Of a stretch of 64,000 bases of DNA, positions 19,013 through 43,967 are shown one piece after another; the first letter of the stretch is position 1, and each line of letters begins with the position of its first letter. A program made the translations under genes and the position numbers. The notes under the pieces were generated by a model. The model did no database searches. It was not told the DNA's origin and saw only the letters and a list, made by a program, of their open reading frames with translations. The stretch comes from a virus: positions 1 through 64,000 of IMG/VR virus record IMGVR_UViG_3300037755_001058. One strand, 5' to 3'.

Positions 19013-19244
19013 ATGACCATCGATGACTTGATCGCGCAACTCGAAGAACTCAGGGAGGCAGCGCCTTAGTGGTGGCGACACCGAGGTGCTCGTCGCTACT
19101 CAACGGGAATGGCCGTTGGCACTCGTCGTGGAGCGGCTGTCCGTGGTGACGGAGGACTGCGATGAGCCGGCGGTGTGGATCGCCACCGGAGGCCATCCAT
19201 CGTGGCGGCGTCCGTACGCTCCGAAGGAGGCGTGGGATGAGTAG
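19013..19244 (+). pseudogene. small phage gene split by a +1 frameshift at CCT-TAG-T
   Basis: MTIDDLIAQLEELREAAP* continues in the +1 frame as SGGDTEVLVATQREWPL...PYAPKEAWDE*, ending across the next ATG. Confidence 0.6.
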
Positions 19245-19782
19245 GGATCCGTTCCGGTTGGCTCATGGGATCGATCCGTCGTCCGAGTACGAGTGGGCCG
19301 ATCTCAGGGCTAAGGTGGTTCGTGAGGTTATCGACGGACTGTCTCCTCTGCTCCTGGCGCAGGAGATGGTGGGTTCGACTGGATCGCACGAAGCGGCTCA
19401 ATTTGAGCACCGGTGGCGTGTGACCCTCGCGTCCATGTTCCACGTCAGGACCAGACGCGAGCAGGGCCATCCCACTCTGTGGAGATTCCTCTACAGGTGG
19501 CCGTCTGTGGTCCAGGTGGCCGATGCATCGGTTCAGGAGATTCAAGGTGTCGTCAGACCCCTGGGACTTCAGGTGCGTCGCGGCCGTCTCATCAAGACCG
19601 CTGCGAGGCAGCACATCATGGGTGTTCGTCCGTGGCCGGCCGACCCTGATGTTCCCATGGCGGGGGTCGGCCAGTACGTCATGGACGCGTACAGGATCTT
19701 CGCACTGAAGGAGAACATCTCTACTGACGACAGAGAGCTGAGGGCGTTCGTAGCATGGAGGCTACGAAACAGGTCGGGGTGA
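19237..19782 (+). CDS. MBD4-like HhH-GPD DNA glycosylase (T:G/U:G mismatch)
   Basis: SPLLLAQE...WRVTLASMFHVRT...LWRFLYRWPS...RPLGL..RR...GVGQYVMDAYRIF...DDREL closely parallels the MBD4 glycosylase domain. Confidence 0.85.
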   Translation: MSRDPFRLAHGIDPSSEYEWADLRAKVVREVIDGLSPLLLAQEMVGSTGSHEAAQFEHRWRVTLASMFHVRTRREQGHPTLWRFLYRWPSVVQVADASVQEIQGVVRPLGLQVRRGRLIKTAARQHIMGVRPWPADPDVPMAGVGQYVMDAYRIFALKENISTDDRELRAFVAWRLRNRSG

Positions 19783-23239: not shown

Positions 23240-24103
23240 ATGGCCAGCGTTCCGCGCCCGCCCAGCAACAAGAGGAAAGCCGAGATCGACAAGGAGAGCC
23301 TCGCCACTCTGATAGAGGCGAGGCGGCTAGAGGATGAGGTCTTGAGGGATGTGGTCCCACAAGGCCCACGACCGAGACGTGCCATTATCCGCGACAAGCT
23401 CATCAGGTCATCAGACGCGGCTGATGACCAACGGTTTGTGGAATCCCAACGGTTGTGCTGGCACGCTGCCCATCTCATCGAGTACACCGTCTATACGGTT
23501 GCCCGTAAATGGGCGGCCCATAATGATAGCGTGTGTGATGAGGAGAGGGCCTGGGGTATGTGGGGCGCGTTCGAGGCCGCCAGGAGGTTCGATCCGGATA
23601 TGGGCGTCCTGTTCAGGACGTACGCGCGATGGTGGATCAGGGCGAAGATCACCAGGTCCATGCCCAATTCGAACCTTCCGGCTGGAAAGATCGAACAGGT
23701 GAGAAACCTACAGATCCTCAGAGATGAAGGAATCACCGATACTGACACGGTATGCCGGCGGATGGGCATAGACCGAGAGAGTCTGGAGAGGCTCAAGGTC
23801 TACGCGATGTCGAAATACTCCGTGTCTCTGGATTCTGGGCAGACCGACGAATATGACGATGTCCCGTTGGTTCTTGCATCTCCTGAGCCGGACTACCATG
23901 GTAGAGACATCGAGAAGCTGGTAGAGGCGCTGGACTCCCTCAGCGAACGTGAGAGGCACGTGGTGATCTGGAGGTACGGCATCGGTCAGTTAGAGCCAGT
24001 TCCTCTGTCTGAGGTCGGTCGTCGGCTGGATCTCTCGCGCGAGCGGGCCAGGCAGATCGAGGCCAAAGCCATCGAAGAGCTGAGACTCGCCCTCGCGGGT
24101 TAA
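23240..24103 (+). CDS. RNA polymerase sigma-70 family factor
   Basis: Region 2 AARRFDPDMGVLFRTYARWWIR; region 4 LSERERHVV..RYG...LSEVGRRLDLSRERARQIEAKA. Confidence 0.92.
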   Translation: MASVPRPPSNKRKAEIDKESLATLIEARRLEDEVLRDVVPQGPRPRRAIIRDKLIRSSDAADDQRFVESQRLCWHAAHLIEYTVYTVARKWAAHNDSVCDEERAWGMWGAFEAARRFDPDMGVLFRTYARWWIRAKITRSMPNSNLPAGKIEQVRNLQILRDEGITDTDTVCRRMGIDRESLERLKVYAMSKYSVSLDSGQTDEYDDVPLVLASPEPDYHGRDIEKLVEALDSLSERERHVVIWRYGIGQLEPVPLSEVGRRLDLSRERARQIEAKAIEELRLALAG

Positions 24104-25595: not shown

Positions 25596-28460
25596 ATGAA
25601 GCTAACGGTCCAGGCACTCAGCACCAGCCTAATGGCGTTGGGTCTGGACCCGTCGGAGGGCAACTCTCAGGGATGGGCCACCACCGTGTGCCCAGCGTGT
25701 GGCGCGGAATCGGACCGGCCATCGCTGAGAGTCCAGGTCGATACCGGTAACTACAAGTGCTGGCGATGCGGCGCCTCCTCCAGTGGAGATGCCAGCGTTC
25801 CGCTGGATGTATTCGTAGGCAACCCGGTAGCTCCAGGCGCTAGCTCCAAGACGGGTTCAGACCTACCTAAGTTGACCGAAGAGCTGGTTCTCACGTACGC
25901 AAGACTCCTGATGGAGTCTCCCGCCGTCGTGTCTGACCTGGAACGACGCCGGGGTTGGAACAGCACGACTACAGAGCGTATCAGCCTGGGATGGGATGGT
26001 AGCCATCTGTGGATTCCGGTACGCTCGGCCGATGGGGCGCTACAGAACGCGCGAATGTACGACCCGTTCAAGCGTCATAGGGTCAAGTCGTTCCATTACG
26101 CCAACGATGATGGCCTCAAGAGGACGGTGGCTTGGGTACCGTTCGGTCTGGAGTCGCTGGATGGTAGCGATGAGATCTGGATGTTCGAAGGTGAACCTGA
26201 CGCCATTCTTGCAGCCCAGATGGGCTTTCCGACGCTGGTAATCACGGGTGGGGCTGGAACTTGGACCGACGAGGTCTTGTCGATAGTGGCAGATCGCCGT
26301 GTAGTCCTGTGCTACGATATGGATGGGCCTGGCATCAACGGCGCCAAGGCCGTCAGGTCTAGATTAATCGCGGCAGGGAAGGACGTCGTCCATCTGAGCT
26401 TTCCGCTCAGTGATCCGTCGTACAAGGACTTCACCGATGCTGTGATGCATGACAGCAGGAATGCTGCGTGGTTTCGGCAGTTGGCCGATGATATGCGCGA
26501 GGGGGCTTCAGCCGGTGGAAGCGGAAAGGTACCGACCCCGCCTATGCCGGTAAAGTTCGGTGGAGGGACGCCGGGAGAGCCTATCATCGTCAAGGCCCAC
26601 GTCATGGGTTCGCATACAACTCCAGTGCTAGCGCCTCAAGTGGTAGAGGCCACCTGCACGATGAACTGGGGTGACGCGTGCGAGCGGTGTCCAGCGAGAC
26701 GGGCCGAGGGTCGTCTCACCGTCAGGGTAGACCCTGAGTCCAAGGCACTGATGAGTCTATGTGCCATGCCGGCTAGGACTCAGTCGGGTGAGCTGAAGAG
26801 GCTCGTAAGAGTTCCGTCCAGATGTCCCATCGTAGAGTTGACCACTCCAGCCATGTGGCAAGTGCAGCACTTGAAGCTGATAGCTCCGATGGCAGAGAGG
26901 GTGGGGGGCGACGATATCATCAGGGCTGCCATGTTCGTATCTCCTGCCGATGGAAGGCCACTCCCAATCAGGGCCAACCAGCTGTACAATTTCATTGGCA
27001 AGATCGAACCAGACGTCCTAACAAACGAGTGGACGTTAGTGTCTGGTGAGGCGCGTGCCGCCGAAGATGACGTGGAGTCGTTCAGACTGGATGCAGGTCT
27101 GGCGGAGGCCATGGCATCGATGGCTAGCCCGCCTGAATGGACGGTAGAGGCGATAGATGCGATCCTTCAGGACGAAGAAGACTCGATGGCTCGGCACACG
27201 ACGCATGTGTACGGACGGAGGTCGCTGCTGAGGGCTATCGACCTTGTGTATCACAGCGTGGTACAGTTTCCGTTCAAGGGCCGACCAACGACGCGTGGAT
27301 GGCTGTCTCTGGCCATCGTCGGAGATACGCGGACTGGTAAATCGGAGACCATGTCTGCTTACCAACGACATGTTGGAATGGGTCGATACGTTATGGACCC
27401 AGCCAACACGACATACGCCGGTCTGGTAGGAGGACTTCAGCAGGTAGGCAAGGGCGACAAGGCCTGGGTCATCACGTGGGGGCTCATCCCGACGAACGAT
27501 CGTGGTCTAGTAATCGTGGATGAGATCTCATCGTTGGACGTGGCCGATATCGGCAAGATGTCTGGCATGCGGTCATCTGGTGTGGCAGAGATCACTAAGA
27601 TCAGAGGTGCATCGACCCCCGCAAGGACCAGACTCATCATGGCGGGGAACCCACGAGGCCTGGGAAGGATGCTGTCGTCGTTCGGCACTCCTATCGAAGC
27701 TCTCATGGAGTTGATCGGAGCACCAGAGGACGTGGCACGGTTCGATCTTGCTCTGGCCGTTCCTCAGGGTTTGGACAAGGAACGGGCCGACAGGGATCTG
27801 GGAAGTCGGCCTCAACCGATGCCTGTTGAGCTACGTCGCGCGTTGATCAAGTTCGCTTGGTCCAGGGCGTCTGACCAGGTGGTCTGGGAGGATGGTGCTC
27901 AGGAGCTGTGCACATCGGAGGGATCTAGGCTAGCCTCCAAGTACTCTCACAGGATTCCACTGGTTGAGCCGTCAGAACAAGATTTGAAGATTGCCAGGAC
28001 GGCCGTAGCCTCTGCCTGTCGAACATTTTCAGTGGCCAACGACGATTTCAACACGGTATTTGTGCGATGCTGTCACGTACAGTTCGCCGTGACAACGCTC
28101 GAGCGACTGTTCGACGGTGAGCTGCAATATCGAGACTACTCGGAGTTCATGGATCGTCAGCGCATCGATAGAGGCGAGGTTACCAAGGTAGTCGTAGGAC
28201 TTCAACCACGCGCTGTACCAGCAACGTGTAGAGCCCTTCTGGGCCTGAGGAAGGTGAACCCCAATTCGATTGGAATGGTGCTAGGTCTGGACGGTGGAGA
28301 GGCGCGCCTGTTCATGTCCAAGCTGGCACAGAATGGCGCTGCGATCTTCGACACCGAGAACGGTCGAAACACTTCGATGGTGTGGACCTCAGACTTCGTA
28401 GGGTTGCTGCGAGACATGGAGACGAACCCTCCTGAGGTAGATGGGGAGGACCTCTTCTAA
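25596..28460 (+). CDS. primase (Zn-ribbon + TOPRIM) fused to an MCM-type AAA+ helicase
   Basis: CPAC..CWRC; MFEGEPD and CYDMDGPG TOPRIM; IVGDTRTGKS, IVDEI, IMAGNP, ARFDL (MCM SRFD arginine finger). Confidence 0.88.
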   Translation: MKLTVQALSTSLMALGLDPSEGNSQGWATTVCPACGAESDRPSLRVQVDTGNYKCWRCGASSSGDASVPLDVFVGNPVAPGASSKTGSDLPKLTEELVLTYARLLMESPAVVSDLERRRGWNSTTTERISLGWDGSHLWIPVRSADGALQNARMYDPFKRHRVKSFHYANDDGLKRTVAWVPFGLESLDGSDEIWMFEGEPDAILAAQMGFPTLVITGGAGTWTDEVLSIVADRRVVLCYDMDGPGINGAKAVRSRLIAAGKDVVHLSFPLSDPSYKDFTDAVMHDSRNAAWFRQLADDMREGASAGGSGKVPTPPMPVKFGGGTPGEPIIVKAHVMGSHTTPVLAPQVVEATCTMNWGDACERCPARRAEGRLTVRVDPESKALMSLCAMPARTQSGELKRLVRVPSRCPIVELTTPAMWQVQHLKLIAPMAERVGGDDIIRAAMFVSPADGRPLPIRANQLYNFIGKIEPDVLTNEWTLVSGEARAAEDDVESFRLDAGLAEAMASMASPPEWTVEAIDAILQDEEDSMARHTTHVYGRRSLLRAIDLVYHSVVQFPFKGRPTTRGWLSLAIVGDTRTGKSETMSAYQRHVGMGRYVMDPANTTYAGLVGGLQQVGKGDKAWVITWGLIPTNDRGLVIVDEISSLDVADIGKMSGMRSSGVAEITKIRGASTPARTRLIMAGNPRGLGRMLSSFGTPIEALMELIGAPEDVARFDLALAVPQGLDKERADRDLGSRPQPMPVELRRALIKFAWSRASDQVVWEDGAQELCTSEGSRLASKYSHRIPLVEPSEQDLKIARTAVASACRTFSVANDDFNTVFVRCCHVQFAVTTLERLFDGELQYRDYSEFMDRQRIDRGEVTKVVVGLQPRAVPATCRALLGLRKVNPNSIGMVLGLDGGEARLFMSKLAQNGAAIFDTENGRNTSMVWTSDFVGLLRDMETNPPEVDGEDLF

Positions 28461-29770: not shown

Positions 29771-30090
29771 TGGCCGACCCTTCCGAGGGGGTGAGGCGTT
29801 TTTTCGTGAACGCCGCCCAGCGCATATCGAGGCGACCCGTCGCCAAGGCAGCCTACGCGGCTACCTTGGTCGTCGGGCCGTTCAGTTTCAGTGTGGCAAC
29901 CAAAGGTACCGGGTCATCCTCATTGATTCCGAAGATCGGAATGCCAACAGCGACCAGATCAGACTCGTGGACGTCAGCCGTACTAGCGCGGCCCGAAGAA
30001 CAACGACGTACGAGGCTGTCTCGAGAAGAACGTAGGGATAAGAAGAGGCGTAGAAAGGTTACCCGCGCCGCCAAACGGAGGAACCGTTGA
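29770..30090 (+). CDS. basic hypothetical protein
   Basis: Coupled to neighbours on both sides; Arg/Lys-rich C-terminus. Confidence 0.5.
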   Translation: MADPSEGVRRFFVNAAQRISRRPVAKAAYAATLVVGPFSFSVATKGTGSSSLIPKIGMPTATRSDSWTSAVLARPEEQRRTRLSREERRDKKRRRKVTRAAKRRNR

Positions 30091-30866
30091 ACGTTCAGGC
30101 CTGCGCCCCAAATGGTATCGATCTCGTCGACCTGCCTTCGGACCCTCAGGCCGATATGATCTCTCGCCAGAGGCGCTTCCAGGCTCGGGTATACGGAGAA
30201 GCCAAGCTGGCAGAGTTGCGCGATTTCGGCTCATCACGGCGCTGTGACGTACGGGCCGTGTTGCATCACCTAGACATGGGTGGTCAGGAGTGCTCCGAGG
30301 CCTGGGACATGGTCGAGGGTGGATGGAAACACCACAAGACCAATCCGCACGATCCTGACAAGCTCGAACTCATGATGGAGCTCGTCGATATCATGTGTTT
30401 CGCGCTGAACACGTACATCTACATGGGGGGTCAGCCTGAATCGGAACTCGTGGCGGCGGCCGTTGCCAGGAGCAAGGAACAGATGCGATACCCGAAGATT
30501 GGCCTCGACGAGGCATGGGTCATCGGGGCATCGAGCTGGGAGAGGAACGGCCCGAAGATGCGAGCCCTGTACGATCATGGCCGCGGTAGCCATGGGCGGG
30601 AGTGGACCAAGGAAGCCGCGACGCGCATCAACTTCCTCAGGGCACAGTTCTTCGACTCAGCAGCAACCATCAGGTACGGTCTGTCGAGGATGACCAAGGC
30701 CGAGCGCGAGACGTTTCCGCCGGCGTCCGGTTATGTCTACATCCAACTCGTTCCGTGGATCTGCGGTGCGGTTCAGGCGATCCCTGGAATGGGACTACAG
30801 GACCTGTACTCTGCCTTCGTGAAGAAGGACCAGATCAACAATGAGAGGCAAGATGCAGGCTATTAG
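30087..30866 (+). CDS. all-alpha NTP pyrophosphatase (dimeric dUTPase / T4 gp56 dCTPase-like)
   Basis: QECSEAWD..WKHHK, MELVDIMCF, C-terminal KKDQINNERQDAGY. Confidence 0.8.
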   Translation: MNVQACAPNGIDLVDLPSDPQADMISRQRRFQARVYGEAKLAELRDFGSSRRCDVRAVLHHLDMGGQECSEAWDMVEGGWKHHKTNPHDPDKLELMMELVDIMCFALNTYIYMGGQPESELVAAAVARSKEQMRYPKIGLDEAWVIGASSWERNGPKMRALYDHGRGSHGREWTKEAATRINFLRAQFFDSAATIRYGLSRMTKAERETFPPASGYVYIQLVPWICGAVQAIPGMGLQDLYSAFVKKDQINNERQDAGY

Positions 30867-32064
30867 CCTGGGGTACCAATCGCATCCGTTGGACGACCAG
30901 TTCTCTGCGATCACGGTTCGTTTGAACGAGGCGTCCGATGAGCACACAGCTCTCGGGACATGCATCTTCGCCGGAGGATTTTCCTTCGGAATGGAAGAGG
31001 CCGGGTTCACGGTGGCCGGTCATCTCGAACTTCCGGACCTGGCCCTCGGGTCTCACACCTCCAAGCAGAGGTGGCCGGTTGCCGTAGCCAGTCTCGATCT
31101 ATGGAAGGAGTACATCGATCAGCTGCGGGATAAGGACATCGTTCCAGATGTATTCTACGCCAATCCACCTTGCGTTGCTTACGCCGGTACTGGGAAGCAC
31201 GATGGAACGATGGATAGTCGTATGTGCTATACCAGGTACTGCGCGTACGATGCAGCCATGAGACTTCAGCCTGACGTCTGGATGTGGGAGCTGGTCGACG
31301 GAGTCATGCGAGACCGAGGATTTCTCGATGCGATGGCGTTCCGAGCGAAGTCCCTCGGGTACAGGTGCTACGCATTCCTTACATCATCGGCTATCCATGG
31401 TGGATACCAGGACAGGCGTAGATTCCACTTCGTTGCTAGCCGGTTCGAGCTAGACTTCGAGGATGTGTGGGCCAACGAGCCCGTTCCTCGTAGGACCGTG
31501 CACACCCTCTCAGAGGCGTTGGCGTCGGTGCCTGCAGGTTCTACCAACCACGAGACCGTGTATAGGGGAGCATTCCGATCGATCTTCCCGTTCTGCCCCC
31601 CGGGAATGCACCTTCGGGATGTGTCTGATGATGTCATGCGTGAGCACTACCGTCCACGTGGTACTGCGTGGACAGGCACGGGGAGACCTGGGTTCTCACA
31701 CACGCGTGCGAGGATGGACCGGCCATCCCCTAATGTCCTCGGAGGCCATACGATAATCCACCCCATCGAGAACAGGTACCTCACACCTCGTGAGTGCGCC
31801 GCTATCATGGGGTTTCCCCATGACTACGCCTTCAGCCACGGTGCTATGGCGTACGCTGAGATAGGCAGGGGGTTGTGCACCCACAACGCCGCGTTCCTGG
31901 GGAGGGTAGTCAAGAACGCTCTTGAGAGGCGCGTGCGTACGGTGCCGACCAGGGTTGACGACTCCTGGATGACAGTGGTAGACTGGCGCCGGAGGGCCAA
32001 GCCCCTTCGGCTGAAGATGACCGAAGCCGAAATCGAGGCTTGGTGGAGTGAGCGAGTTTCGTAA
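30853..32064 (+). CDS. atypical C5-cytosine DNA methyltransferase homologue (candidate carboxymethyltransferase)
   Basis: IFAGGF (I), NPPC (IV), ELV (VI), QDRRRF (VIII), RYLTPRECAAIMGFP (IX), AYAEIGRG (X, N replaced by R). Confidence 0.85.
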   Translation: MQAISLGYQSHPLDDQFSAITVRLNEASDEHTALGTCIFAGGFSFGMEEAGFTVAGHLELPDLALGSHTSKQRWPVAVASLDLWKEYIDQLRDKDIVPDVFYANPPCVAYAGTGKHDGTMDSRMCYTRYCAYDAAMRLQPDVWMWELVDGVMRDRGFLDAMAFRAKSLGYRCYAFLTSSAIHGGYQDRRRFHFVASRFELDFEDVWANEPVPRRTVHTLSEALASVPAGSTNHETVYRGAFRSIFPFCPPGMHLRDVSDDVMREHYRPRGTAWTGTGRPGFSHTRARMDRPSPNVLGGHTIIHPIENRYLTPRECAAIMGFPHDYAFSHGAMAYAEIGRGLCTHNAAFLGRVVKNALERRVRTVPTRVDDSWMTVVDWRRRAKPLRLKMTEAEIEAWWSERVS

Positions 32065-33043
32065 CACAATAACGTACTCCACCAGCCGCGATCGCATCCT
32101 TAGATCGTGTCCCAGGAAGTACTGGTACCACGTGTACGCATCTTGGCGCGGATGGTGGAGGCGTGGCAAGCCTCCGACTGATAGACGCGCAGAGGATACG
32201 TACCAGGCCAGGTTCTTCGACAATATCCCTGCCTTAACTGGTAGGATTGTGCACGACCAAGCGGCTAGGATGTTGAGAGGTGCTCAAGAGGGACGTCGGT
32301 GGGTGGACGCAAATGGCGTTGGACAGACGCTTCTGAGAAACACTCGATCTGATGCAGAGCACCGACTAAATGTGGCCAGGGGGCGTCGCTACGTCAACCC
32401 TAAGGTCAATACCAGACTCCTGGAGTTCGAGCTGGGGGGCGAGGTAGACGACTTCGATTTTTTTGATCGGGTACGAACGAAGACTCTGTCCATCGTTTCT
32501 CCGGATGAGTGCTGGAACGGAATGGAGGAACGAAGGAATCTGTTCCTCCATGCCATCACCAATGGGAAGAGCATCGTCCTAGTGGAGGACCTCGTAACAT
32601 ATCACGTCAACGGCGTGCAGGTCTGGTTGCAGGTGGACATGATGATGAGGTCTGACCACGATCCAGTGCATGACTGTGTGATCGTGGACTGGAAGACTGG
32701 TCGCCCAAAGCCTGAAGATGTCCATCAGGCAGAACTGTACGGTCACTGGGCGTGGATGAAGGGTTGGACCGGAGCTCAGGTGATCATGGCGTACCTAAAG
32801 AACGTTGACTCGGTGGAGCTCAGAGCCATCGAGATGAATCGTCACAGAGTGGTAAGTGCCGAAGCCAGAATCGCCAGGTTCATAGACGATATCCGGTCTC
32901 GCATCGTTGATGGCGATATTTTGAGGAACGAGCCGATAGAAGAGAGGTTCGAAGCCATTGGCAGCCCGGTTGGATGCGCTGTATGCGAGTTCCAGGCGAT
33001 CTGCGGGGCTGACGGAACGAAGCCGAGCTGGGTGGACCGTTGA
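32048..33043 (+). CDS. PD-(D/E)XK nuclease (RecB/Cas4-like)
   Basis: SCPRKY, VD...IVDWKTG, Q..LY, C-terminal CAVCEFQAIC. Confidence 0.8.
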   Translation: MSEFRNTITYSTSRDRILRSCPRKYWYHVYASWRGWWRRGKPPTDRRAEDTYQARFFDNIPALTGRIVHDQAARMLRGAQEGRRWVDANGVGQTLLRNTRSDAEHRLNVARGRRYVNPKVNTRLLEFELGGEVDDFDFFDRVRTKTLSIVSPDECWNGMEERRNLFLHAITNGKSIVLVEDLVTYHVNGVQVWLQVDMMMRSDHDPVHDCVIVDWKTGRPKPEDVHQAELYGHWAWMKGWTGAQVIMAYLKNVDSVELRAIEMNRHRVVSAEARIARFIDDIRSRIVDGDILRNEPIEERFEAIGSPVGCAVCEFQAICGADGTKPSWVDR

Positions 33044-34343: not shown

Positions 34344-36083
34344 GTGGCAGACGAGTATGCTCGCGAGGATGTTGCCATCATCCTCGAGAAGACGAACCTA
34401 CAAATCGGGTACATGGAGGGCGAGGTTCCTGGGTCTCCACCCCAGGAGGACCCGTTCGTCGTCGGAGCTGGTCAGATCGTCGAGCCACCGGTGAATCCTA
34501 CGCGCGCAATGCGCGCGGTCAAGTCGAACGGCCATCTTGCTGCGGTGTGTGCAGTAGTGGCGGAGGGGTGTGCCGGAGTCCGGTACGAGATGGTTCCCAG
34601 GTTCAGATCGAAGTTCGTTCCAGGGATGGAGAACTTCGACGCGGCCAGGCCGGATACGTGGCCCCCTGAGGCTCGAGAGCAACGGCGGAAGCTCCAGGTA
34701 CTCGTGCAGGCGGGCTTCATTGGAAGAGGCGCGGAGTCCATCCGGTCCGGGTTCAAGGACCAGGAGCTCGATAGGATCATCCTGGGGTGGGGTGGAGTCC
34801 AGGTCCGGCGAGAACCGACGGTGCGCGGTGGTCCATCGGTTCCGCCACCGCGAGGTCTATCACGGTTCGAGGCCTGCAACGCTCGGTTCACACATCCAGA
34901 TAGAACTGCCACCATGACACCGGTGCCGGTGGCGTTGGAAGATGGTACGATCTGGTGGGTAGAGGAACCACGATTCTTCAGGAAGCTGCGAGTGCAGCTG
35001 GCCAACGGCCGCTACACCTGGTTCAAGGAATACGGTGATTGGCGGTCGATGTCGTCTCGTACGGGCAATCGTTCTACGGGAGCAAGGCGCAAGCCTTCCA
35101 TGGTTCCTGGCCAGCCAGGAACGTACACCCCCGGACAGGTTCCGGACGGACATCCGGCTGCGATCGAGGTGATGCACTGGAGGACCTCGTTTCCAGGAGT
35201 GTACCCGTACGGATGGTCGGCGTGGCATAGCGAGATGCGAGCGGCCGATGCGGCCGATGAGCACATCGGCCTCGTTCTTCAGTACCTCAAGTCTGGATTG
35301 CACTCGCTGGTGTTGGCTGCTAGCACCAGACCGTTCGACCAGGCTGCAGCACAGGCTGCCATCCAAAAGGTCGATGAGCTCGGTCGTGGTCGGAAGGGGT
35401 TAGGTTCCTTGGTCACTCTGGCCTTGGTGCCATCAGACAGCGACGCCAGGTCGCCGGCTGCGATGTTCGACAATGGGACTGCCGATACTGGGAAGCTGGT
35501 CCTCCATGAGATCAGTACGAAGCTTCCCGATGCGCTCCTCAGCAAGGACGGCCTTCAGGAATCCACATCAGTACGGTTCAGCAACGCAGAGCGGATCCCT
35601 GGGCTGTTGCTGGGACGGTCAGAGACGTACAACTTCGCCACGGCGTCAGCAGCATGGGCGGTGGTAAACCGACTGAGGTTTGGCCCTAGTCACGAGGAGC
35701 GCGAGTCGTTCCTCGATAGGTTCCTGATCGAGATGGGGATCACCTTCTGGCGCCTGGACGTAGTCTCACCTGAATGGGATGACAAGGAGCCATTGTCTGG
35801 CATTGCCTCCGTGGCCGGTCAGTACGGTGGTATGTCGGCCAACGATGCCATGATGATGTTGAGCGATGTCCTCAACACCGAGTTCAAGCCGTCGAAGGAC
35901 TGGTGGGGCGACGTTCCATTCGCGCTCGTCAACGCCATCATCAACGCAACGGACCCTTCGGGGCTGGCCAAGCTGATGGGAGTTGATCTTCCTGAAGACT
36001 TCAAGAACGTCGTTCCGCAGGTGGCCACACTGGCTGCCATGGTAGAGGAGCGTCTTACGGCGCTCGAGGCTCAGGTTCCGTAG
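34344..36083 (+). CDS. phage portal protein
   Basis: WFKEYGD, IEVMHWR...PYG, IPGLLLGRSETYNFATA resemble PBSX-type portals; 579 aa. Confidence 0.7.
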   Translation: MADEYAREDVAIILEKTNLQIGYMEGEVPGSPPQEDPFVVGAGQIVEPPVNPTRAMRAVKSNGHLAAVCAVVAEGCAGVRYEMVPRFRSKFVPGMENFDAARPDTWPPEAREQRRKLQVLVQAGFIGRGAESIRSGFKDQELDRIILGWGGVQVRREPTVRGGPSVPPPRGLSRFEACNARFTHPDRTATMTPVPVALEDGTIWWVEEPRFFRKLRVQLANGRYTWFKEYGDWRSMSSRTGNRSTGARRKPSMVPGQPGTYTPGQVPDGHPAAIEVMHWRTSFPGVYPYGWSAWHSEMRAADAADEHIGLVLQYLKSGLHSLVLAASTRPFDQAAAQAAIQKVDELGRGRKGLGSLVTLALVPSDSDARSPAAMFDNGTADTGKLVLHEISTKLPDALLSKDGLQESTSVRFSNAERIPGLLLGRSETYNFATASAAWAVVNRLRFGPSHEERESFLDRFLIEMGITFWRLDVVSPEWDDKEPLSGIASVAGQYGGMSANDAMMMLSDVLNTEFKPSKDWWGDVPFALVNAIINATDPSGLAKLMGVDLPEDFKNVVPQVATLAAMVEERLTALEAQVP

Positions 36084-36157: not shown

Positions 36158-37105
36158 ATGGAAGGATTGATCTGTCTACGAACTGGACAGCTCCGCAGAG
36201 GTTCTGACGGACAGTCAGAGCCAGTCGATCCCGATGGAATCGAGCACATGTGGGTGCCCATCATCGAGGGTGAGCCAATGTTCGTTCAGAACGTGGGCTC
36301 TACCTCTAACCCGCACGACCGAACCGACGATGGAAGGTTCGACAGATCGCACCTCTCCCCAGAGAGGGCATACAGGATCGGTCGCGATTACTTGGCGCAC
36401 TGTATTCGGTACGGTTTCCCGATGAAGGTGATCAAGGAGCACTTCGGGGCTGGGGTTCGCATCCTGGAGATGGGGTGCGGGAAGGAGATCCCGTTGTTCA
36501 GGACGCTCACCTGCGACCATTCCGCCACGAAGTACTACAAGCCGAGTCAGTACTGCGGAGTCGACCTGAATCCCATCAAGTACCATCCTCGAGTGACAGG
36601 CATCGAGAGCAAGGTTCTCTCGCGCGTCAACTGCGTGACCGAACCGGAGAAGGTGCCAGATTGGACGTTCGATCTGGTCTTGTCCTTCGAGGTCGTCGAG
36701 CACATGGACAAGCCCGACGGTGACAGGTTCCTCGATGCCATGGTGACCTTCGCCAAGCGCAAGGTCGATCGTGAGGGCAAGCCAGGAATGATCCTCCTGT
36801 CGACACCCGTGAACAACGGAACCATCGCCAAGAACCACATCTACGAGTGGCGGCGCTCGGAGCTGGAACGAGCCTGGACCAGGCGTGGGTGCAGAGTGCT
36901 CGAGCAGTACGGTACGTTCAGCAACCTCAGGGACCTGTTCGCGGCTATGGACGACACCGAGATCGAGGTGTGGAATCGCATGGCGGCCTACCACAGTCCG
37001 AACACGCTGTCATGCGTGTTCAGCGCCATGCATCCTGAGGCCGCTAGGAACGTGGCCTGGAAGATCGAGGTTGGTGAGGATTCACACCCTCTGGATGGAC
37101 GATGA
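36158..37105 (+). CDS. class I SAM-dependent methyltransferase
   Basis: RILEMGCG, YCGVD, FDLVLSFEVVEHM, LLSTP; GGAGG RBS. Confidence 0.85.
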   Translation: MEGLICLRTGQLRRGSDGQSEPVDPDGIEHMWVPIIEGEPMFVQNVGSTSNPHDRTDDGRFDRSHLSPERAYRIGRDYLAHCIRYGFPMKVIKEHFGAGVRILEMGCGKEIPLFRTLTCDHSATKYYKPSQYCGVDLNPIKYHPRVTGIESKVLSRVNCVTEPEKVPDWTFDLVLSFEVVEHMDKPDGDRFLDAMVTFAKRKVDREGKPGMILLSTPVNNGTIAKNHIYEWRRSELERAWTRRGCRVLEQYGTFSNLRDLFAAMDDTEIEVWNRMAAYHSPNTLSCVFSAMHPEAARNVAWKIEVGEDSHPLDGR

Positions 37106-37317
37106 GCAAAGGTACGACGTGTCTGGCGTGCCGGCACTGTTTCATGGAGCCGGACGATGACTTCTGCTGCGGGCATCCAGATGCCGGAGAGGTGGGGACG
37201 TACGTCAAACGCGCAGCGGTGGAGGGGGGACACTGCGGCCCAGAGCGGCCGAAGTTCGAGCAGCACCCGCTCCGCACCGCCGACGGCTACATGAAGCCGA
37301 TCGAGCGTACCACATGA
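37102..37317 (+). CDS. small Cys-rich protein
   Basis: CLACRHC...CCGH...HCG; ATGA coupling. Confidence 0.6.
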   Translation: MSKGTTCLACRHCFMEPDDDFCCGHPDAGEVGTYVKRAAVEGGHCGPERPKFEQHPLRTADGYMKPIERTT

Positions 37318-37733
37318 ATTACTACCTCGCAACCAAGCTCGAACGTGCCGAAGAAGCACGCGCAGTGCACTTCAACCTGGTTTCTCTCGATGTAGGCTTC
37401 AAGTGTACCTACGACTGGACAACCCATGGTTCGGTCAAGAACACCTCCAGGATCCGTCTGGCAGAGGTTGGACTGAACGAGACCAAGGGTGTCCTCAGTG
37501 CTGACGTGGTGATCGTTCTTCTTCCTGGAGGGCGAGGCACCCACGCCGAGCTCGGAATCGCGATCGGCGCTGGCAAACGAGTGATCCTTCATTCGAAGAC
37601 CGGCAATGAGTTCGAGGTCAACGACGGGACCTGTGCGTTCTACTGGCAGCCGCTGTGCGAGAGGGTCGTGGGAGACCTAACCGCGCTCGTCAAGTACCTC
37701 GCCGAGCCGGCCGTCGGGATGATCGTCAGGTGA
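37314..37733 (+). CDS. nucleoside 2-deoxyribosyltransferase-family N-glycosidase (NDT/DNPH1/MilB-like)
   Basis: YYLA...GVLSADVVIVLLPGGRGTHAELGIA. Confidence 0.75.
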   Translation: MNYYLATKLERAEEARAVHFNLVSLDVGFKCTYDWTTHGSVKNTSRIRLAEVGLNETKGVLSADVVIVLLPGGRGTHAELGIAIGAGKRVILHSKTGNEFEVNDGTCAFYWQPLCERVVGDLTALVKYLAEPAVGMIVR

Positions 37734-38611
37734 ACCCAGTCATCATCATCGAGGGTCCGGACGGGGTGGGCAAGACCACCCTGTGCGATGCCCTCGCACA
37801 GAGGTTTTTGGGCTCGTGTACGATTGTTCATTCCGTTCACTATGGCCCACCACCCGGTGATGAACCAACCGCCCTGTACTACTGGGACGAGGTGGACAAC
37901 ATCCTGGGCCTGGCGAAGTCCGGTCCAGTGATCGTCGACAGATTCCATGTTGGTGAGATGGTCTACGGCCCGATCCTCCGGGGTGATGCTGGGATGAGCC
38001 TCGACGAGGCTTGTGTCATCGACATGCGACTGCAGGCCATCGGCGCCATGATGTGTCATTGTAGGCTATCATCCACAGACCTATCGTCCAGATTGCTGTC
38101 CAGGGACGGCGGCCTTCCGGATTCTGCTAGCGGCGCCGCGCTGGGCCACAGCGAAGCCGTTCGGGCAGCGTTCTTTGGGATGACCAACGGAGTGCTTCCG
38201 TCGTCTTGGGAGCAGCTCGATATGACCTGGTACCCAGCACAGCTGGTTCCACTGGTGGCGCTGTCGTCGATCTCCCTGAGCACATTCGGTGCGGAGGTTG
38301 GGGTCATCGGCAATGTCAGGTCTCCACAAGTGCTCATCAAGGTGCCGAACTCTGACATGGATACCCTCTCGAGGGTAGTTCGAGGTTTGAGGTTGGCGGG
38401 GATGGTACGGGTCTCTGCCATCGAATATGATGACACCGATCTGAACTACACAACCGTATCTCGATCAGTAGCCATGGGGTTGTCACTGCATCGTACCCTC
38501 ATGGAAAGGGGGTTCAAGCTCCCGTCTGTCGTGTCCACCGACGCGACTCCGGAAGATATCGCCGAGGCAGTACGAACCGCCGTGGTGGCACAGCCCAGTC
38601 CGGAAGGATAG
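37730..38611 (+). CDS. dNMP/thymidylate kinase-like P-loop kinase
   Basis: IIIEGPDGVGKTT, IVDRFHVGEMVYGPILRG. Confidence 0.85.
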   Translation: MNPVIIIEGPDGVGKTTLCDALAQRFLGSCTIVHSVHYGPPPGDEPTALYYWDEVDNILGLAKSGPVIVDRFHVGEMVYGPILRGDAGMSLDEACVIDMRLQAIGAMMCHCRLSSTDLSSRLLSRDGGLPDSASGAALGHSEAVRAAFFGMTNGVLPSSWEQLDMTWYPAQLVPLVALSSISLSTFGAEVGVIGNVRSPQVLIKVPNSDMDTLSRVVRGLRLAGMVRVSAIEYDDTDLNYTTVSRSVAMGLSLHRTLMERGFKLPSVVSTDATPEDIAEAVRTAVVAQPSPEG

Positions 38612-38631
38612 ACACATGGGTGAGGTGAACG

Positions 38632-38886
38632 ATGAAGTTCAACGAGACGGCCATCAAGGCGCTCCCGGAGCGAAACCAGAGAACGATCATGAACCTCCTC
38701 AAGGAGTTGGAGGTCTCCCCGGAGCGGGGGACCTTCGTGATCAGTCGGGAGATCCTCGACCGGATGACCCCCCGGCAGCTCAGGACGCTCAGGCTGATGC
38801 GGCGCGTCCACGACGCGATGGACGTTCCGGTGGTGACACGAGGCCGTTCATCAATCAAGCGGAAGGAGTCGACCGCGACGGAGTGA
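38632..38886 (+). CDS. hypothetical protein
   Basis: GAGGTG RBS; TGATG coupling to the TS homologue. Confidence 0.6.
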   Translation: MKFNETAIKALPERNQRTIMNLLKELEVSPERGTFVISREILDRMTPRQLRTLRLMRRVHDAMDVPVVTRGRSSIKRKESTATE

Positions 38887-39842
38887 TGTCATTCGGCTCG
38901 ATGGATGAGCTCTTCAGGTTCGCCGTCTGGAAGTGCATCGAGCATGGACGGATGACCAAGCCGAGGGGCTTTTCGGTTCTGGAGATCGCCACTCCCACCG
39001 TGCTCACCTTGCGGGACGTCCACAGGCCGTTCATCCACTCGCCTCTGCGACGGCCCAACTACCGATTCGGCCTGGTAGAGGCCGCATGGATCGCAGCCGG
39101 ATCCGATCGTCTGGCCCACCTTTCCGCCGTGAACTCGCGGATGGCACGGTTCAGCGATGATGACTCCACGATGTGGGGTGGGTATGGGCCGCGCGTGATC
39201 GGTCAACTCGACCATGTCATCGAGACACTGCGGCGGGACAACGACAGTCGCCAGGCGGTCGTGACGACATGGCGACCCATGGTTCCACCGGTGGTGGGCA
39301 AGTCTCAAGGCCCGATTCGATCGGCTGGCCTGATGGCCACAGGTTCTGAGACGGTCAGTCCTACATGGGATGGCTACTCCTGGCGATCAAAGGACGTCCC
39401 GTGCACCGTAGCATGGCACTTCCAGTTGCGGAACGGCGGACTGGCTCTGACCGTATTCATGCGGTCTAACGACGTGTGGCTGGGGTTGCCGTACGACGTG
39501 CTGAGCTTCACCACCATCCAGCGTGTGGTTGCTTCTGCACTTGGTGTGAGACTCGGTGCGTACCACCATGTGGTCAGCAACCTTCATCTGTACCAGAAGA
39601 ACTACGAGGCTGCTGTCAGTCTCATGGGGGAGACCGTCTCCAACGAGACTGTGGTGATGCCACCATTCGATGACCTGTTCCTCGGTGGCAGTAGTGATTC
39701 GATGTCGACGATCTTCAACACGACTCTCAACGGCTCTCTCATCTTGATGTCCAAGCCCGGGATGCAGCCGTTCATCTCGGCGGTGATTGGATCCGATGAA
39801 TGGGACGACTTCCGAAAGCTCATGGCTGCTAACGGAAGGTGA
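38886..39842 (+). CDS. thymidylate-synthase homologue, Asp-type (dCMP methylase/hydroxymethylase-like)
   Basis: YGPR, DSRQAV, KDVPCT, MRSNDVWLGLPYD (Asp at the EcTS N177 position), NLHLY. Confidence 0.85.
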   Translation: MSFGSMDELFRFAVWKCIEHGRMTKPRGFSVLEIATPTVLTLRDVHRPFIHSPLRRPNYRFGLVEAAWIAAGSDRLAHLSAVNSRMARFSDDDSTMWGGYGPRVIGQLDHVIETLRRDNDSRQAVVTTWRPMVPPVVGKSQGPIRSAGLMATGSETVSPTWDGYSWRSKDVPCTVAWHFQLRNGGLALTVFMRSNDVWLGLPYDVLSFTTIQRVVASALGVRLGAYHHVVSNLHLYQKNYEAAVSLMGETVSNETVVMPPFDDLFLGGSSDSMSTIFNTTLNGSLILMSKPGMQPFISAVIGSDEWDDFRKLMAANGR

Positions 39843-43033: not shown

Positions 43034-43506
43034 TGGACAGCCCACCAGACCTTAGGGTGCTGTTGGTGGAGCTCGCCCGGGAGCTCAATCGGATTCGTCC
43101 TGAATCCGTTCTGGGTGCGGAGCTGGAGCGAGTATCCACGGCCAAGAACACGTTGTTAGTGCTCAGTCGTGTTCTAACGGCCATGGCCGTTCGGGCCGGC
43201 GTATCGAAGGATGCGGTTGACAGGGCCGTGGCCAAGGCCCGTCGGGCTAACGAACCCAAGCAGGGTGACATGTTCGTTCCTGTTGTGGTCAGCCCGGTTG
43301 CTGAGACGTTGACGACTACCACGGATTGGTACATCATCGCTGAGGTTGACCTGGTGCTTCTCAAGCACCGAACGGAACTTCCAGACTGGTTCGTTAACGA
43401 TTTCTGGCCAGGCTGCATACGGCGCGCGGCTCAGGGCCTGAGGTTGACTGATCGAGAGCGAGCAATTGCCGAGTACCAAGCCAGTAAGGCCAGGGGGGAA
43501 CGGTGA
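43030..43506 (+). CDS. hypothetical protein
   Basis: ATGA coupling. Confidence 0.65.
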   Translation: MMDSPPDLRVLLVELARELNRIRPESVLGAELERVSTAKNTLLVLSRVLTAMAVRAGVSKDAVDRAVAKARRANEPKQGDMFVPVVVSPVAETLTTTTDWYIIAEVDLVLLKHRTELPDWFVNDFWPGCIRRAAQGLRLTDRERAIAEYQASKARGER

Positions 43507-43967
43507 TGAGGCCATCTTGGGACGAGTACTTCATGCACATGGCGGTGATGATCTCCACCAGATCGACGTGTGACCGTCGCAGGGTGGGGTGCGTACTGGT
43601 GTCGCCTCAGTGGAATGTGGTGAGCACCGGGTACAATGGCTCGGCTCCTGGAACTGAACACTGTGACGATACGGGTCACATCATGCACGATGGGCACTGC
43701 GTTCGTACCATCCATGCCGAACGCAACGCCATCGCCCATGCTGCCAAGCGCGGAGTGGCTACCGACAGGACTACGGCGTACATCACCACGATGCCGTGTC
43801 CCACGTGCATCACCGATCTTGTTGCAGCAGGGATCAAGTCGGTGGTCTTCCTAGAAGGCTACCACGACGAGGAGGATCAGGTCACTCGTCGCTTGGCCGC
43901 GGCGAGCGGTGTCGTGCTGTACGAATACGACGGGAGAAAGACATGGGAAAGTCCGATCGACCGGTGA
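43503..43967 (+). CDS. dCMP deaminase
   Basis: RPSWDEYFM, RSTC.RRRVG, GYNG, HAERNAI, PCPTC. Confidence 0.92.
   Translation: MMRPSWDEYFMHMAVMISTRSTCDRRRVGCVLVSPQWNVVSTGYNGSAPGTEHCDDTGHIMHDGHCVRTIHAERNAIAHAAKRGVATDRTTAYITTMPCPTCITDLVAAGIKSVVFLEGYHDEEDQVTRRLAAASGVVLYEYDGRKTWESPIDR

Follow-up and report, generated by a model that had tools for sequence, protein, structure and literature searches.

A gene of an uncultivated phage, recovered as IMG/VR virus record IMGVR_UViG_3300037755_001058, encodes an enzyme of the C5-DNA-methyltransferase fold in which the catalytic residues are intact and the residues that normally frame the methyl group have been replaced. The gene lies on the plus strand at positions 30853-32064 of the window, by which we mean the whole stretch analyzed, the first 64 kb (64,000 nt) of the 91,853-bp record. 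Relatives of this enzyme are encoded beside a ThyA homolog of the dCMP-hydroxymethylase type and a deoxynucleoside monophosphate (dNMP) kinase wherever the surrounding genes could be seen. We propose that the enzyme may act at the DNA level in a module for cytosine-C5 hypermodification based on 5-hydroxymethylcytosine (5hmC), a reading to which we give a probability of roughly 40%. The record derives from a sediment metagenome, has a G+C content of 61%, and is ~85% complete (CheckV); all inferences drawn from it rest on sequence, models, and gene neighborhoods.

An altered pocket in an intact catalytic framework

The predicted 403-aa protein matches Pfam family PF00145 with 69.8 bits (E = 3.7e-19; cut-off, 22 bits). 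An AlphaFold2 model based on 120 homologs has a predicted local distance difference test (pLDDT) score of 96.2, and Foldseek matches it to M.HaeIII, 3G7U, MET1, DNMT1, and 8YF3 at E values of ~1e-16 to 1e-17. The start codon is the ATG at 30853, which has a GAGAGG ribosome-binding site 4 nt upstream; an alternative ATG occurs at 30841. The open reading frame (ORF) overlaps the stop codon of the upstream nucleoside triphosphate (NTP) pyrophosphatase gene by 14 nt, and the C5 enzyme is translationally coupled to that pyrophosphatase.

Motif I of the protein reads CIFAGGF. Motif IV (31162-31176, plus strand) is N104-P-P-C107-V108 within ANPPCVAYA, and its catalytic Cys107 is encoded by the TGC at 31171-31173. 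Motif VI (31288-31296, plus strand) is E146-L147-V148 in the context W-ELV, with ELV in place of ENV and a Glu that is invariant in the clade. Motif VIII is QDRRRFHF, motif IX is RYLTPRECAAIMGFP, and motif X is AEIG-R339-GL, with Arg339 encoded by the AGG at 31867-31869 (plus strand). An earlier interpretation made from the nucleotide letters alone (the sequence-only reading) had reported this ORF, the codon positions, and motifs I, VI, and X exactly as we find them. It had also described the catalytic PC and the QxRxR of motif VIII as intact, and Cys107 and Q186, R188, and R190 are indeed all present.

The central observation of that reading, an Arg at the position of the motif X Asn, was confirmed by two alignment methods. 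HMMER places Arg339 opposite the Asn of IGNAV in M.HaeIII, of FGNSV in M.HhaI (N304), and of IGNSV in 3G7U, a methylase of prophage CP-933R. In hhalign, the R339 column of the family profile (K/R) falls opposite Arg350 of the phage carboxymethyltransferase SpCmoX with a probability of 98%. The same position corresponds to R887 of mouse DNMT3A.

Beyond motif X, the nucleophile Cys107, the cytosine-binding Glu146, Arg188 and Arg190, and the ribose-binding Glu59 are all intact. Throughout the clade, other residues stand at the positions that frame the methyl group; here these are Asn104 for Gly, Val108 for Gln, Leu147 for Asn, Arg339 for Asn, and Gly340 for Ser. When compared with the canonical pocket the protein fails to match, with Val108, Leu147, and Arg339-Gly340 replacing Gln, the Asn of ENV, and Asn-Ser/Ala, respectively. 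Our leading reading is that the gene encodes a putatively catalytically competent, Cys-dependent cytosine-C5 enzyme of DNA-methyltransferase fold.

The enzyme belongs to a separate phage clade

We searched 1.84 billion cluster representatives and obtained 1,977 matches. Of these, 17 form the tight clade around the window enzyme together with a further 48 proteins recovered in a second search, at ~40-60% identity. In these 48 close relatives (47-62% identity) the motif X site is R or K, and C once. More broadly, among the best 150 of the 1,977 representatives the site is R in 65, K in 52, Q in 33, and C in 1, and never N. In several subgroups Lys is the more frequent. The tight clade is characterized by GRGL or GKGL in motif X, NPPC(V/S/A)A(Y/F)A in motif IV, and W-ELV in motif VI, and the next tier (25-37% identity) by (N/H/Q)PPCA, ESV, and R, K, or Q in motif X. 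Asn104, Cys107, Glu146, Arg188, Arg190, and Glu59 are invariant or >90% conserved. Judged by its sequence, the enzyme is a member of a separate, metagenome-only phage clade, and Arg339 is a trait of that clade.

Consistent with a metagenome-only distribution, the C5 gene and the DNA polymerase of this phage, compared with 50,697 cultured phage records by nucleotide search and tblastn, gave no match above 27% identity, and the matches were canonical methylases. At E < 1e-20, the collection of cultured phages yielded no clade member. A scan of genome contigs with the single protein recovered one locus, a related 100.7-kb phage-like contig in a metagenome-assembled genome (MAG) labelled uncultured Myxococcales, which provides a weak hint of the host. 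Across 401 genomes of the phylum of that MAG, the tight clade occurs in that one MAG only; the survey gave three other matches, and the two with legible motifs (L046 and L048) are canonical-type at motif IV.

Related phages also encode a second, longer C5 paralog (P0003; L045, G006:C1:27426-29147) with a ~200-aa C-terminal extension. The longer paralog adjoins the short copy on the contig of the Myxococcales MAG (G006), where its catalytic Cys is replaced by Tyr (NPPY). In G001, a complete 107.8-kb relative with terminal repeats, the two copies are ~40 kb apart.

Pairing with a dCMP-hydroxymethylase-type ThyA homolog

Downstream of the C5 gene the window encodes a ThyA-fold enzyme (38616-39842, plus strand) with Asp at the positions of both E. 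coli N177 and L143 (LPYD, DVPC). Asp at both positions is the signature that distinguishes T4-type and MilA hydroxymethylases from methyl-forming synthases (Lee et al. 2026, PMC13326640). The nearest solved relative of the window protein is the CMP hydroxymethylase MilA (E = 4e-24), and the protein carries a 110-residue N-terminal extension. Based on this signature, we assign it as a putative dCMP-hydroxymethylase-type enzyme. A separate ThyX, at positions 67835-69271 of the record, supplies dTMP.

The association was surveyed from both sides. On the methyltransferase side, we examined 14 distinct clade contigs with at least ~2.5 kb of downstream sequence. All 14 carry a dNMP-kinase homolog and a ThyA homolog within ~3 kb of the C5 gene, and Asp stands at the N177 position in every one of these ThyA homologs. 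Identity among the C5 enzymes of the 14 contigs is 25-60%, and the pairing holds even at 25-30%. On the ThyA side, we took the best 80 viral loci and scored a C5 enzyme if it was encoded no more than 7 kb away. Nine of these loci have one, and all nine enzymes are atypical at motif X (R in four, Q in three, and K in two). A search with the clade hidden Markov model (HMM), which detects canonical methylases at 1e-37 to 1e-46, identified no canonical C5 enzyme near ThyA in any of the 80.

The kinase of the window is a P-loop dNMP-kinase-like protein (37655-38611, plus strand) and a conserved partner in the cassette. The NTP pyrophosphatase (30087-30866, plus strand) is also a conserved neighbor in relatives; Pfam assigns it to the all-alpha dUTPase_2 family, making it a candidate dCTPase/dUTPase. 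In literature searches we came across no account of this cassette, and the MetaGPA and TET papers held no sequence-level link to the clade.

Beside the kinase and the ThyA homolog, the window also encodes a protein of nucleoside 2-deoxyribosyltransferase or MilB-like fold (37314-37733, plus strand; weak Pfam match below cut-off), a homolog of which follows the ThyA-like gene in locus L005 (13155-13730). The kinase/ThyA/MilB-like arrangement recalls the MilA-MilB pair of mildiomycin biosynthesis. In a K-type cluster (L103:5973-6914), the ORF after the C5 enzyme is an apparent fusion of an N-terminal P-loop dNMP-kinase-like part with a C-terminal part of the uracil-DNA-glycosylase superfamily, with weak matches.

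Additional putative modification genes in the Q and R branches

In the Q-type subclade, the C5 gene directly follows genes for homologs of an inositol-phosphate-synthase-like protein, PF18724 (amino acid:DNA transferase), a DSP phosphatase, and PF18748 (5-hydroxymethyldeoxyuridine [5-hmdU] DNA kinase). Specifically, locus L005 (5906-12997) encodes, in order, the inositol-phosphate-synthase-like protein, PF18724, the DSP phosphatase, the PF18748-like protein, the Q-type C5 enzyme, the dNMP kinase, and the dCMP-type ThyA homolog. The same cluster was identified in L006, L007, L008, L023, L024, L026, L028, and L113. Enzymes of these four families are hallmarks of post-replicative hypermodification, and across the 80 ThyA loci they are present only where a C5 enzyme is present. 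The L005-type cluster resembles a version of the thymidine hypermodification pathway for cytosine, and our literature searches turned up no account of it. The genome of the phage studied here has no homolog of PF18748 or PF18724.

A different partner was identified in the R branch. About 4 kb downstream of the C5 gene, the window encodes a class I S-adenosylmethionine (SAM) methyltransferase (36248-37105, plus strand) whose nearest solved relatives are Hen1 methyltransferases and which has the invariant metal-site motifs ExxEH and NH(I/V)YEW. It is 54-76% conserved and accompanies the C5 enzyme on the same phage contigs. Orthologs (hhalign probability, 99.8-99.9%) occur in three divergent R-type lineages, those of the window, L055, and L112; the gene is directly upstream of the C5 enzyme in L055 (3657-4541) and one ORF upstream of it in L112 (2943-3998). 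The NTP pyrophosphatase gene adjoins the C5 gene in all three, directly upstream in the window and directly downstream in L055 and L112, and the kinase and ThyA homolog are encoded further downstream. No Hen1-like methyltransferase was identified in the Q-type lineages examined.

Proposed function

If the enzyme is part of a 5hmC-based module, synthesis of 5-hydroxymethyl-dCMP by the ThyA-type enzyme would feed the pathway. The pocket, re-lined with Asn104 and Arg339 as donors of hydrogen bonds or charge, would hold an oxygen-bearing C5 substituent rather than a bare methyl group. This substituent could already be present on the flipped base, as the hydroxymethyl group or one of its derivatives, or it could be a polar group arriving from an adenosyl cofactor. 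Attack of Cys107 on C6 would activate C5 or its exocyclic carbon. The product is expected to be something other than plain 5-methylcytosine (5mC).

The conserved gene pairing bears directly on this proposal. Full, T4-like replacement of dCTP by 5hm-dCTP would leave a C5 methylase or carboxymethylase without substrate, yet the clade occurs almost exclusively in such a setting, at some loci amid genes for post-replicative hypermodification. Given that a C5 methylase should be of no use where cytosines are already substituted at C5, and that the pairing is nonetheless conserved, the cassette points either to an unknown tailoring of 5hmC or to two-layer protection of cytosine. A more specific version, which we put forward tentatively and consider rather doubtful, is that phages recruited the clade for hydroxymethylated cytosine in DNA, or for its phosphorylated form, with C6-thiol chemistry driving substitution or tailoring. 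In the R/K branch, to which the window gene belongs, the basic residue would then serve to bind an anionic group, either leaving or incoming, and the last step on the base would fall to the Hen1-like methyltransferase.

Action on pre-modified cytosine had been offered as one option by the sequence-only reading, and the link between the clade and dCMP-hydroxymethylase-type ThyA homologs is the strongest new support for it. On the other side, no natural enzyme of C5-methyltransferase fold is known to act on 5hmC, and the precedent for 5hmC chemistry is limited to in vitro side reactions of M.HhaI and M.SssI. Several other points weigh against a 5hmC-based module. Conservation of Glu59, together with the FAGG loop, speaks for continued binding of an adenosyl cofactor, which would fit ordinary group transfer. 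This phage has neither PF18748 nor PF18724, which weakens the hypermodification context for the R/K-type genes. The common gene order may partly reflect shared descent of the replication module, and complete replacement of dC in this phage is a premise of the argument. The predicted placement of Arg339 comes from alignments to solved structures rather than from the geometry of the model.

Alternatives to 5hmC-based modification

The sequence-only reading presented the gene as a candidate natural DNA carboxymethyltransferase. Such an enzyme is now known: CmoX of Synechococcus phage S-B43 is a natural DNA cytosine C5-carboxymethyltransferase (Yang et al., Nat Commun Dec 2025, PMC12783734). A natural carboxymethyltransferase with a motif X Arg is therefore no longer a discovery, although the prediction that this kind of enzyme exists was correct. 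In the crystal structure with carboxy-SAM (Cx-SAM) (8YF3), Arg350 replaces HhaI Asn304 and touches the carboxymethyl group of the cofactor; the R350N variant is inactive, and the wild type takes Cx-SAM only (PMC12783734). The cofactor is supplied by a phage CmoA, and the ligase CmoY joins glycine to the product (PMC12783734). In all, 5,615 CmoX candidates (SPPC plus R350) were reported, with 4,257 CmoA sequences on their contigs (PMC12783734).

Applied to the window enzyme, this chemistry would involve a salt bridge between Arg339 and the carboxylate of Cx-SAM made by a host CmoA, formation of 5-carboxymethylcytosine on unsubstituted cytosines, and possibly tailoring of the resulting handle by the Hen1-like methyltransferase. 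We consider this unlikely, although it has several points in its favor. Arg339 occupies the position of the cofactor-contacting Arg350, Lys at this site yields engineered carboxymethyltransferases, and the tight clade alternates R and K freely. In addition, Asn104 and Val108 parallel Ser95 and Ser99 of CmoX, as the Gly before PPC is replaced by Asn here and by Ser in CmoX, and the Gln after the Cys by Val here and by Ser in CmoX. A host source of cofactor could also suffice, as the CmoA of E. coli did for SpCmoX in vivo (PMC12783734).

Sequence comparison speaks against this alternative. In phmmer searches SpCmoX scores 98 bits against the canonical methylase of Nostoc phage N1, at most 58 bits against any clade member, and 10 bits against the window protein. 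SpCmoX is thus closer to canonical methylases than to this clade, indicating that the basic motif X residue arose independently. Other features of the clade also fit poorly with carboxymethylation: Gln is present in a third of the wider clade, Q-type members occupy the same cassette, and replacement of dCTP by 5hm-dCTP would leave C5 blocked. We also rejected the idea that the protein is nearer to CmoX than to ordinary methylases by fold, as 8YF3 ranks only ninth among its Foldseek matches. Likewise, membership in the CmoX family was rejected, given NPPC instead of SPPC, a similarity of ~10 bits, and neither CmoA nor CmoY found in this record, two near-complete relatives, and 121 related loci.

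The search for a source of carboxy-SAM covered the record itself (G000), G001, four related virus records (G002-G005), and the Myxococcales MAG with its phage contig (G006). The CmoA model TIGR00740, which detects the S-B43 CmoA at E = 2.5e-34 as a positive control, has no match at E <= 1 in the whole 91.8-kb record, in the complete relative, in the four related records, or in the 100.7-kb phage contig. Searches with SpCmoA and SpCmoY (phmmer) returned nothing in a neighborhood set of 121 related loci. The MAG as a whole has no CmoA; it has weak matches to generic class I methyltransferases, the best at 32 bits against a cut-off of 193, and all lie off the phage contig. The remark of the sequence-only reading that no CmoA is visible in the window therefore extends to the full record, and its suggestion that the synthase might be encoded elsewhere in the genome is not borne out by the rest of the ~85%-complete record. 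Its other suggestion, a host source, has had a mixed outcome: the MAG that carries the relative lacks CmoA, 6 of 21 genomes of the order of that MAG encode a true CmoA, and the link to this host is weak.

Two genes of the window were considered as missing partners in a CmoX-like pathway and rejected. The Hen1-like methyltransferase, the sole class I fold gene in the vicinity and one that the sequence-only reading did not mention, is not a cryptic CmoA: it has no TIGR00740 match, BLASTP against SpCmoA gives E = 0.99, and CmoA is not among its top 50 fold matches. A 579-aa ORF (34344-36083, plus strand) was considered as a CmoY-like ligase and has no Pfam or Protein Data Bank (PDB) match. Pfam scans of the window identified no ligase domain and no ParB domain.

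Plain SAM-dependent formation of 5mC by a divergent lineage also strikes us as improbable. R, K, and Q would then be alternative contacts to the cofactor, as the interchange of these residues suggests a generic long polar side chain, and the targets would be leftover cytosines or specific motifs. The intact catalytic motifs and canonical fold are compatible with this explanation. Precedents also exist for methylation with a basic residue at this site. Mouse DNMT3A R887 and DNMT3B R839 occupy the same motif X position in SAM-dependent 5mC writers, and R887A barely alters AdoMet kinetics in DNMT3A (PMC13594970). M.MedI-N377K retains >99% methylation with SAM while gaining activity with Cx-SAM (PMC12015181). 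An Arg at motif X alone is not diagnostic of carboxymethyl transfer.

Weighing against plain methylation is the extent and the setting of the change. Five pocket positions are altered together, with Asn104 >90% conserved, and the GGSPC motif of DNMT3A retains the canonical Gly before S/P-P-C. The clade lies beside dCMP-hydroxymethylase-type genes wherever context exists, canonical methylases were found in 0 of the 80 ThyA loci, and a 5hmC genome would offer little substrate. A silent or accessory protein of C5 fold, acting as a base-flipping or binding subunit without transfer chemistry of its own, as in DNMT3L, recalls the NPPY copy of the longer paralog in G006, but is highly improbable for the window enzyme given that Cys107, Glu146, Arg188, and Arg190 are conserved here and in >90% of the clade.

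Other genes of the window

The C5 gene is followed by a PD-(D/E)XK nuclease gene (32048-33043, plus strand; Pfam), which is also present in distant clusters of the clade. An AAA ATPase is encoded on the same strand between the nuclease and the 579-aa ORF, and the ATPase and this ORF are neighbors in relatives too. Protein-atlas features of the 579-aa product hint at a phage portal protein, a lead only and one that would be oddly placed within a replication module. After the ThyA homolog come PolA, on the same strand, and a dCMP deaminase (43503-43967, plus strand).

Elsewhere on the plus strand, the window encodes a sigma-70-type factor with regions 2 and 4 (23240-24103) and a 954-aa fusion of a Toprim primase with an MCM-type helicase (25596-28460). 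An 884-aa ORF (46812-49466) joins a Topo VI-A/Spo11 Toprim domain to a GHKL ATPase, which would make its product a type IIB topoisomerase in fused form, unusual in a tailed phage. A weak match to HhH-GPD glycosylases (19162-19782; E = 0.0036, below cut-off) would fit a genome with modified cytosine.

Significance and comparison with known systems

Two aspects of this system are new. The same pocket change as in CmoX arose independently in a large clade of uncultivated phages in which no carboxy-SAM synthase was found. The clade is also paired throughout with a dCMP-hydroxymethylase-type ThyA homolog and a dNMP kinase, and one branch adds homologs of the DNA kinase and amino acid:DNA transferase. 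If confirmed, tailoring of 5hmC would be a type of natural DNA-modifying reaction that we did not find described in the searchable literature. Either outcome, 5hmC tailoring or two-layer protection, would extend the catalog of phage DNA modifications and could provide sequencing chemistry with new enzymes that label C or 5hmC.

The canonical C5 methylases (M.HaeIII, M.HhaI, the CP-933R enzyme 3G7U, and that of Nostoc phage N1) share the fold, the order of motifs I to X, the catalytic PC, the motif VI Glu, and QxRxR with the window protein, and are its best matches in both sequence and fold. They have GGPPCQ, ENV, and GN(A/S)V, whereas the atypical clade has (N/H/Q)PPC(A/S/V), E(S/L)V, and (R/K/Q)(G/A)(V/L). 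The engineered enzymes M.MpeI-N374K and M.MedI-N377K have a basic residue at the same motif X Asn position, but are single-site mutants of canonical CpG methylases in which the rest of the pocket is canonical. DNMT3A and DNMT3B resemble the window enzyme in having a natural Arg at this position and no Gln after the catalytic Cys; they differ as eukaryotic SAM-dependent 5mC writers without a link to nucleotide-level modification of cytosine.

CmoX is likewise a phage-encoded protein of C5 fold with a motif X Arg, a small residue after the Cys, and a polar residue replacing the Gly before PPC. It has SPPC and ENV where the window enzyme has NPPC and ELV, and its neighbors are CmoA and the ligase CmoY rather than an NTP pyrophosphatase, a dNMP kinase, and a dCMP-type ThyA homolog. 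To our knowledge, and in agreement with our literature searches, the described pathways for 5hmC and thymidine hypermodification contain no enzyme of C5-methyltransferase fold. The predicted supply of a hydroxymethyl pyrimidine by a ThyA homolog, a dNMP kinase, and an NTP pyrophosphatase is a system-level resemblance to the T4 5hmC system and to thymidine hypermodification (5-HMUDK, aGPT-Pplase/ADDT; Lee et al., PMC8989533). In the Q-type relatives, homologs of the DNA kinase and of the amino acid:DNA transferase adjoin the C5 enzyme. The ThyA homolog here is of the dCMP type rather than the dUMP type, and neither that kinase nor that transferase is encoded by this phage.

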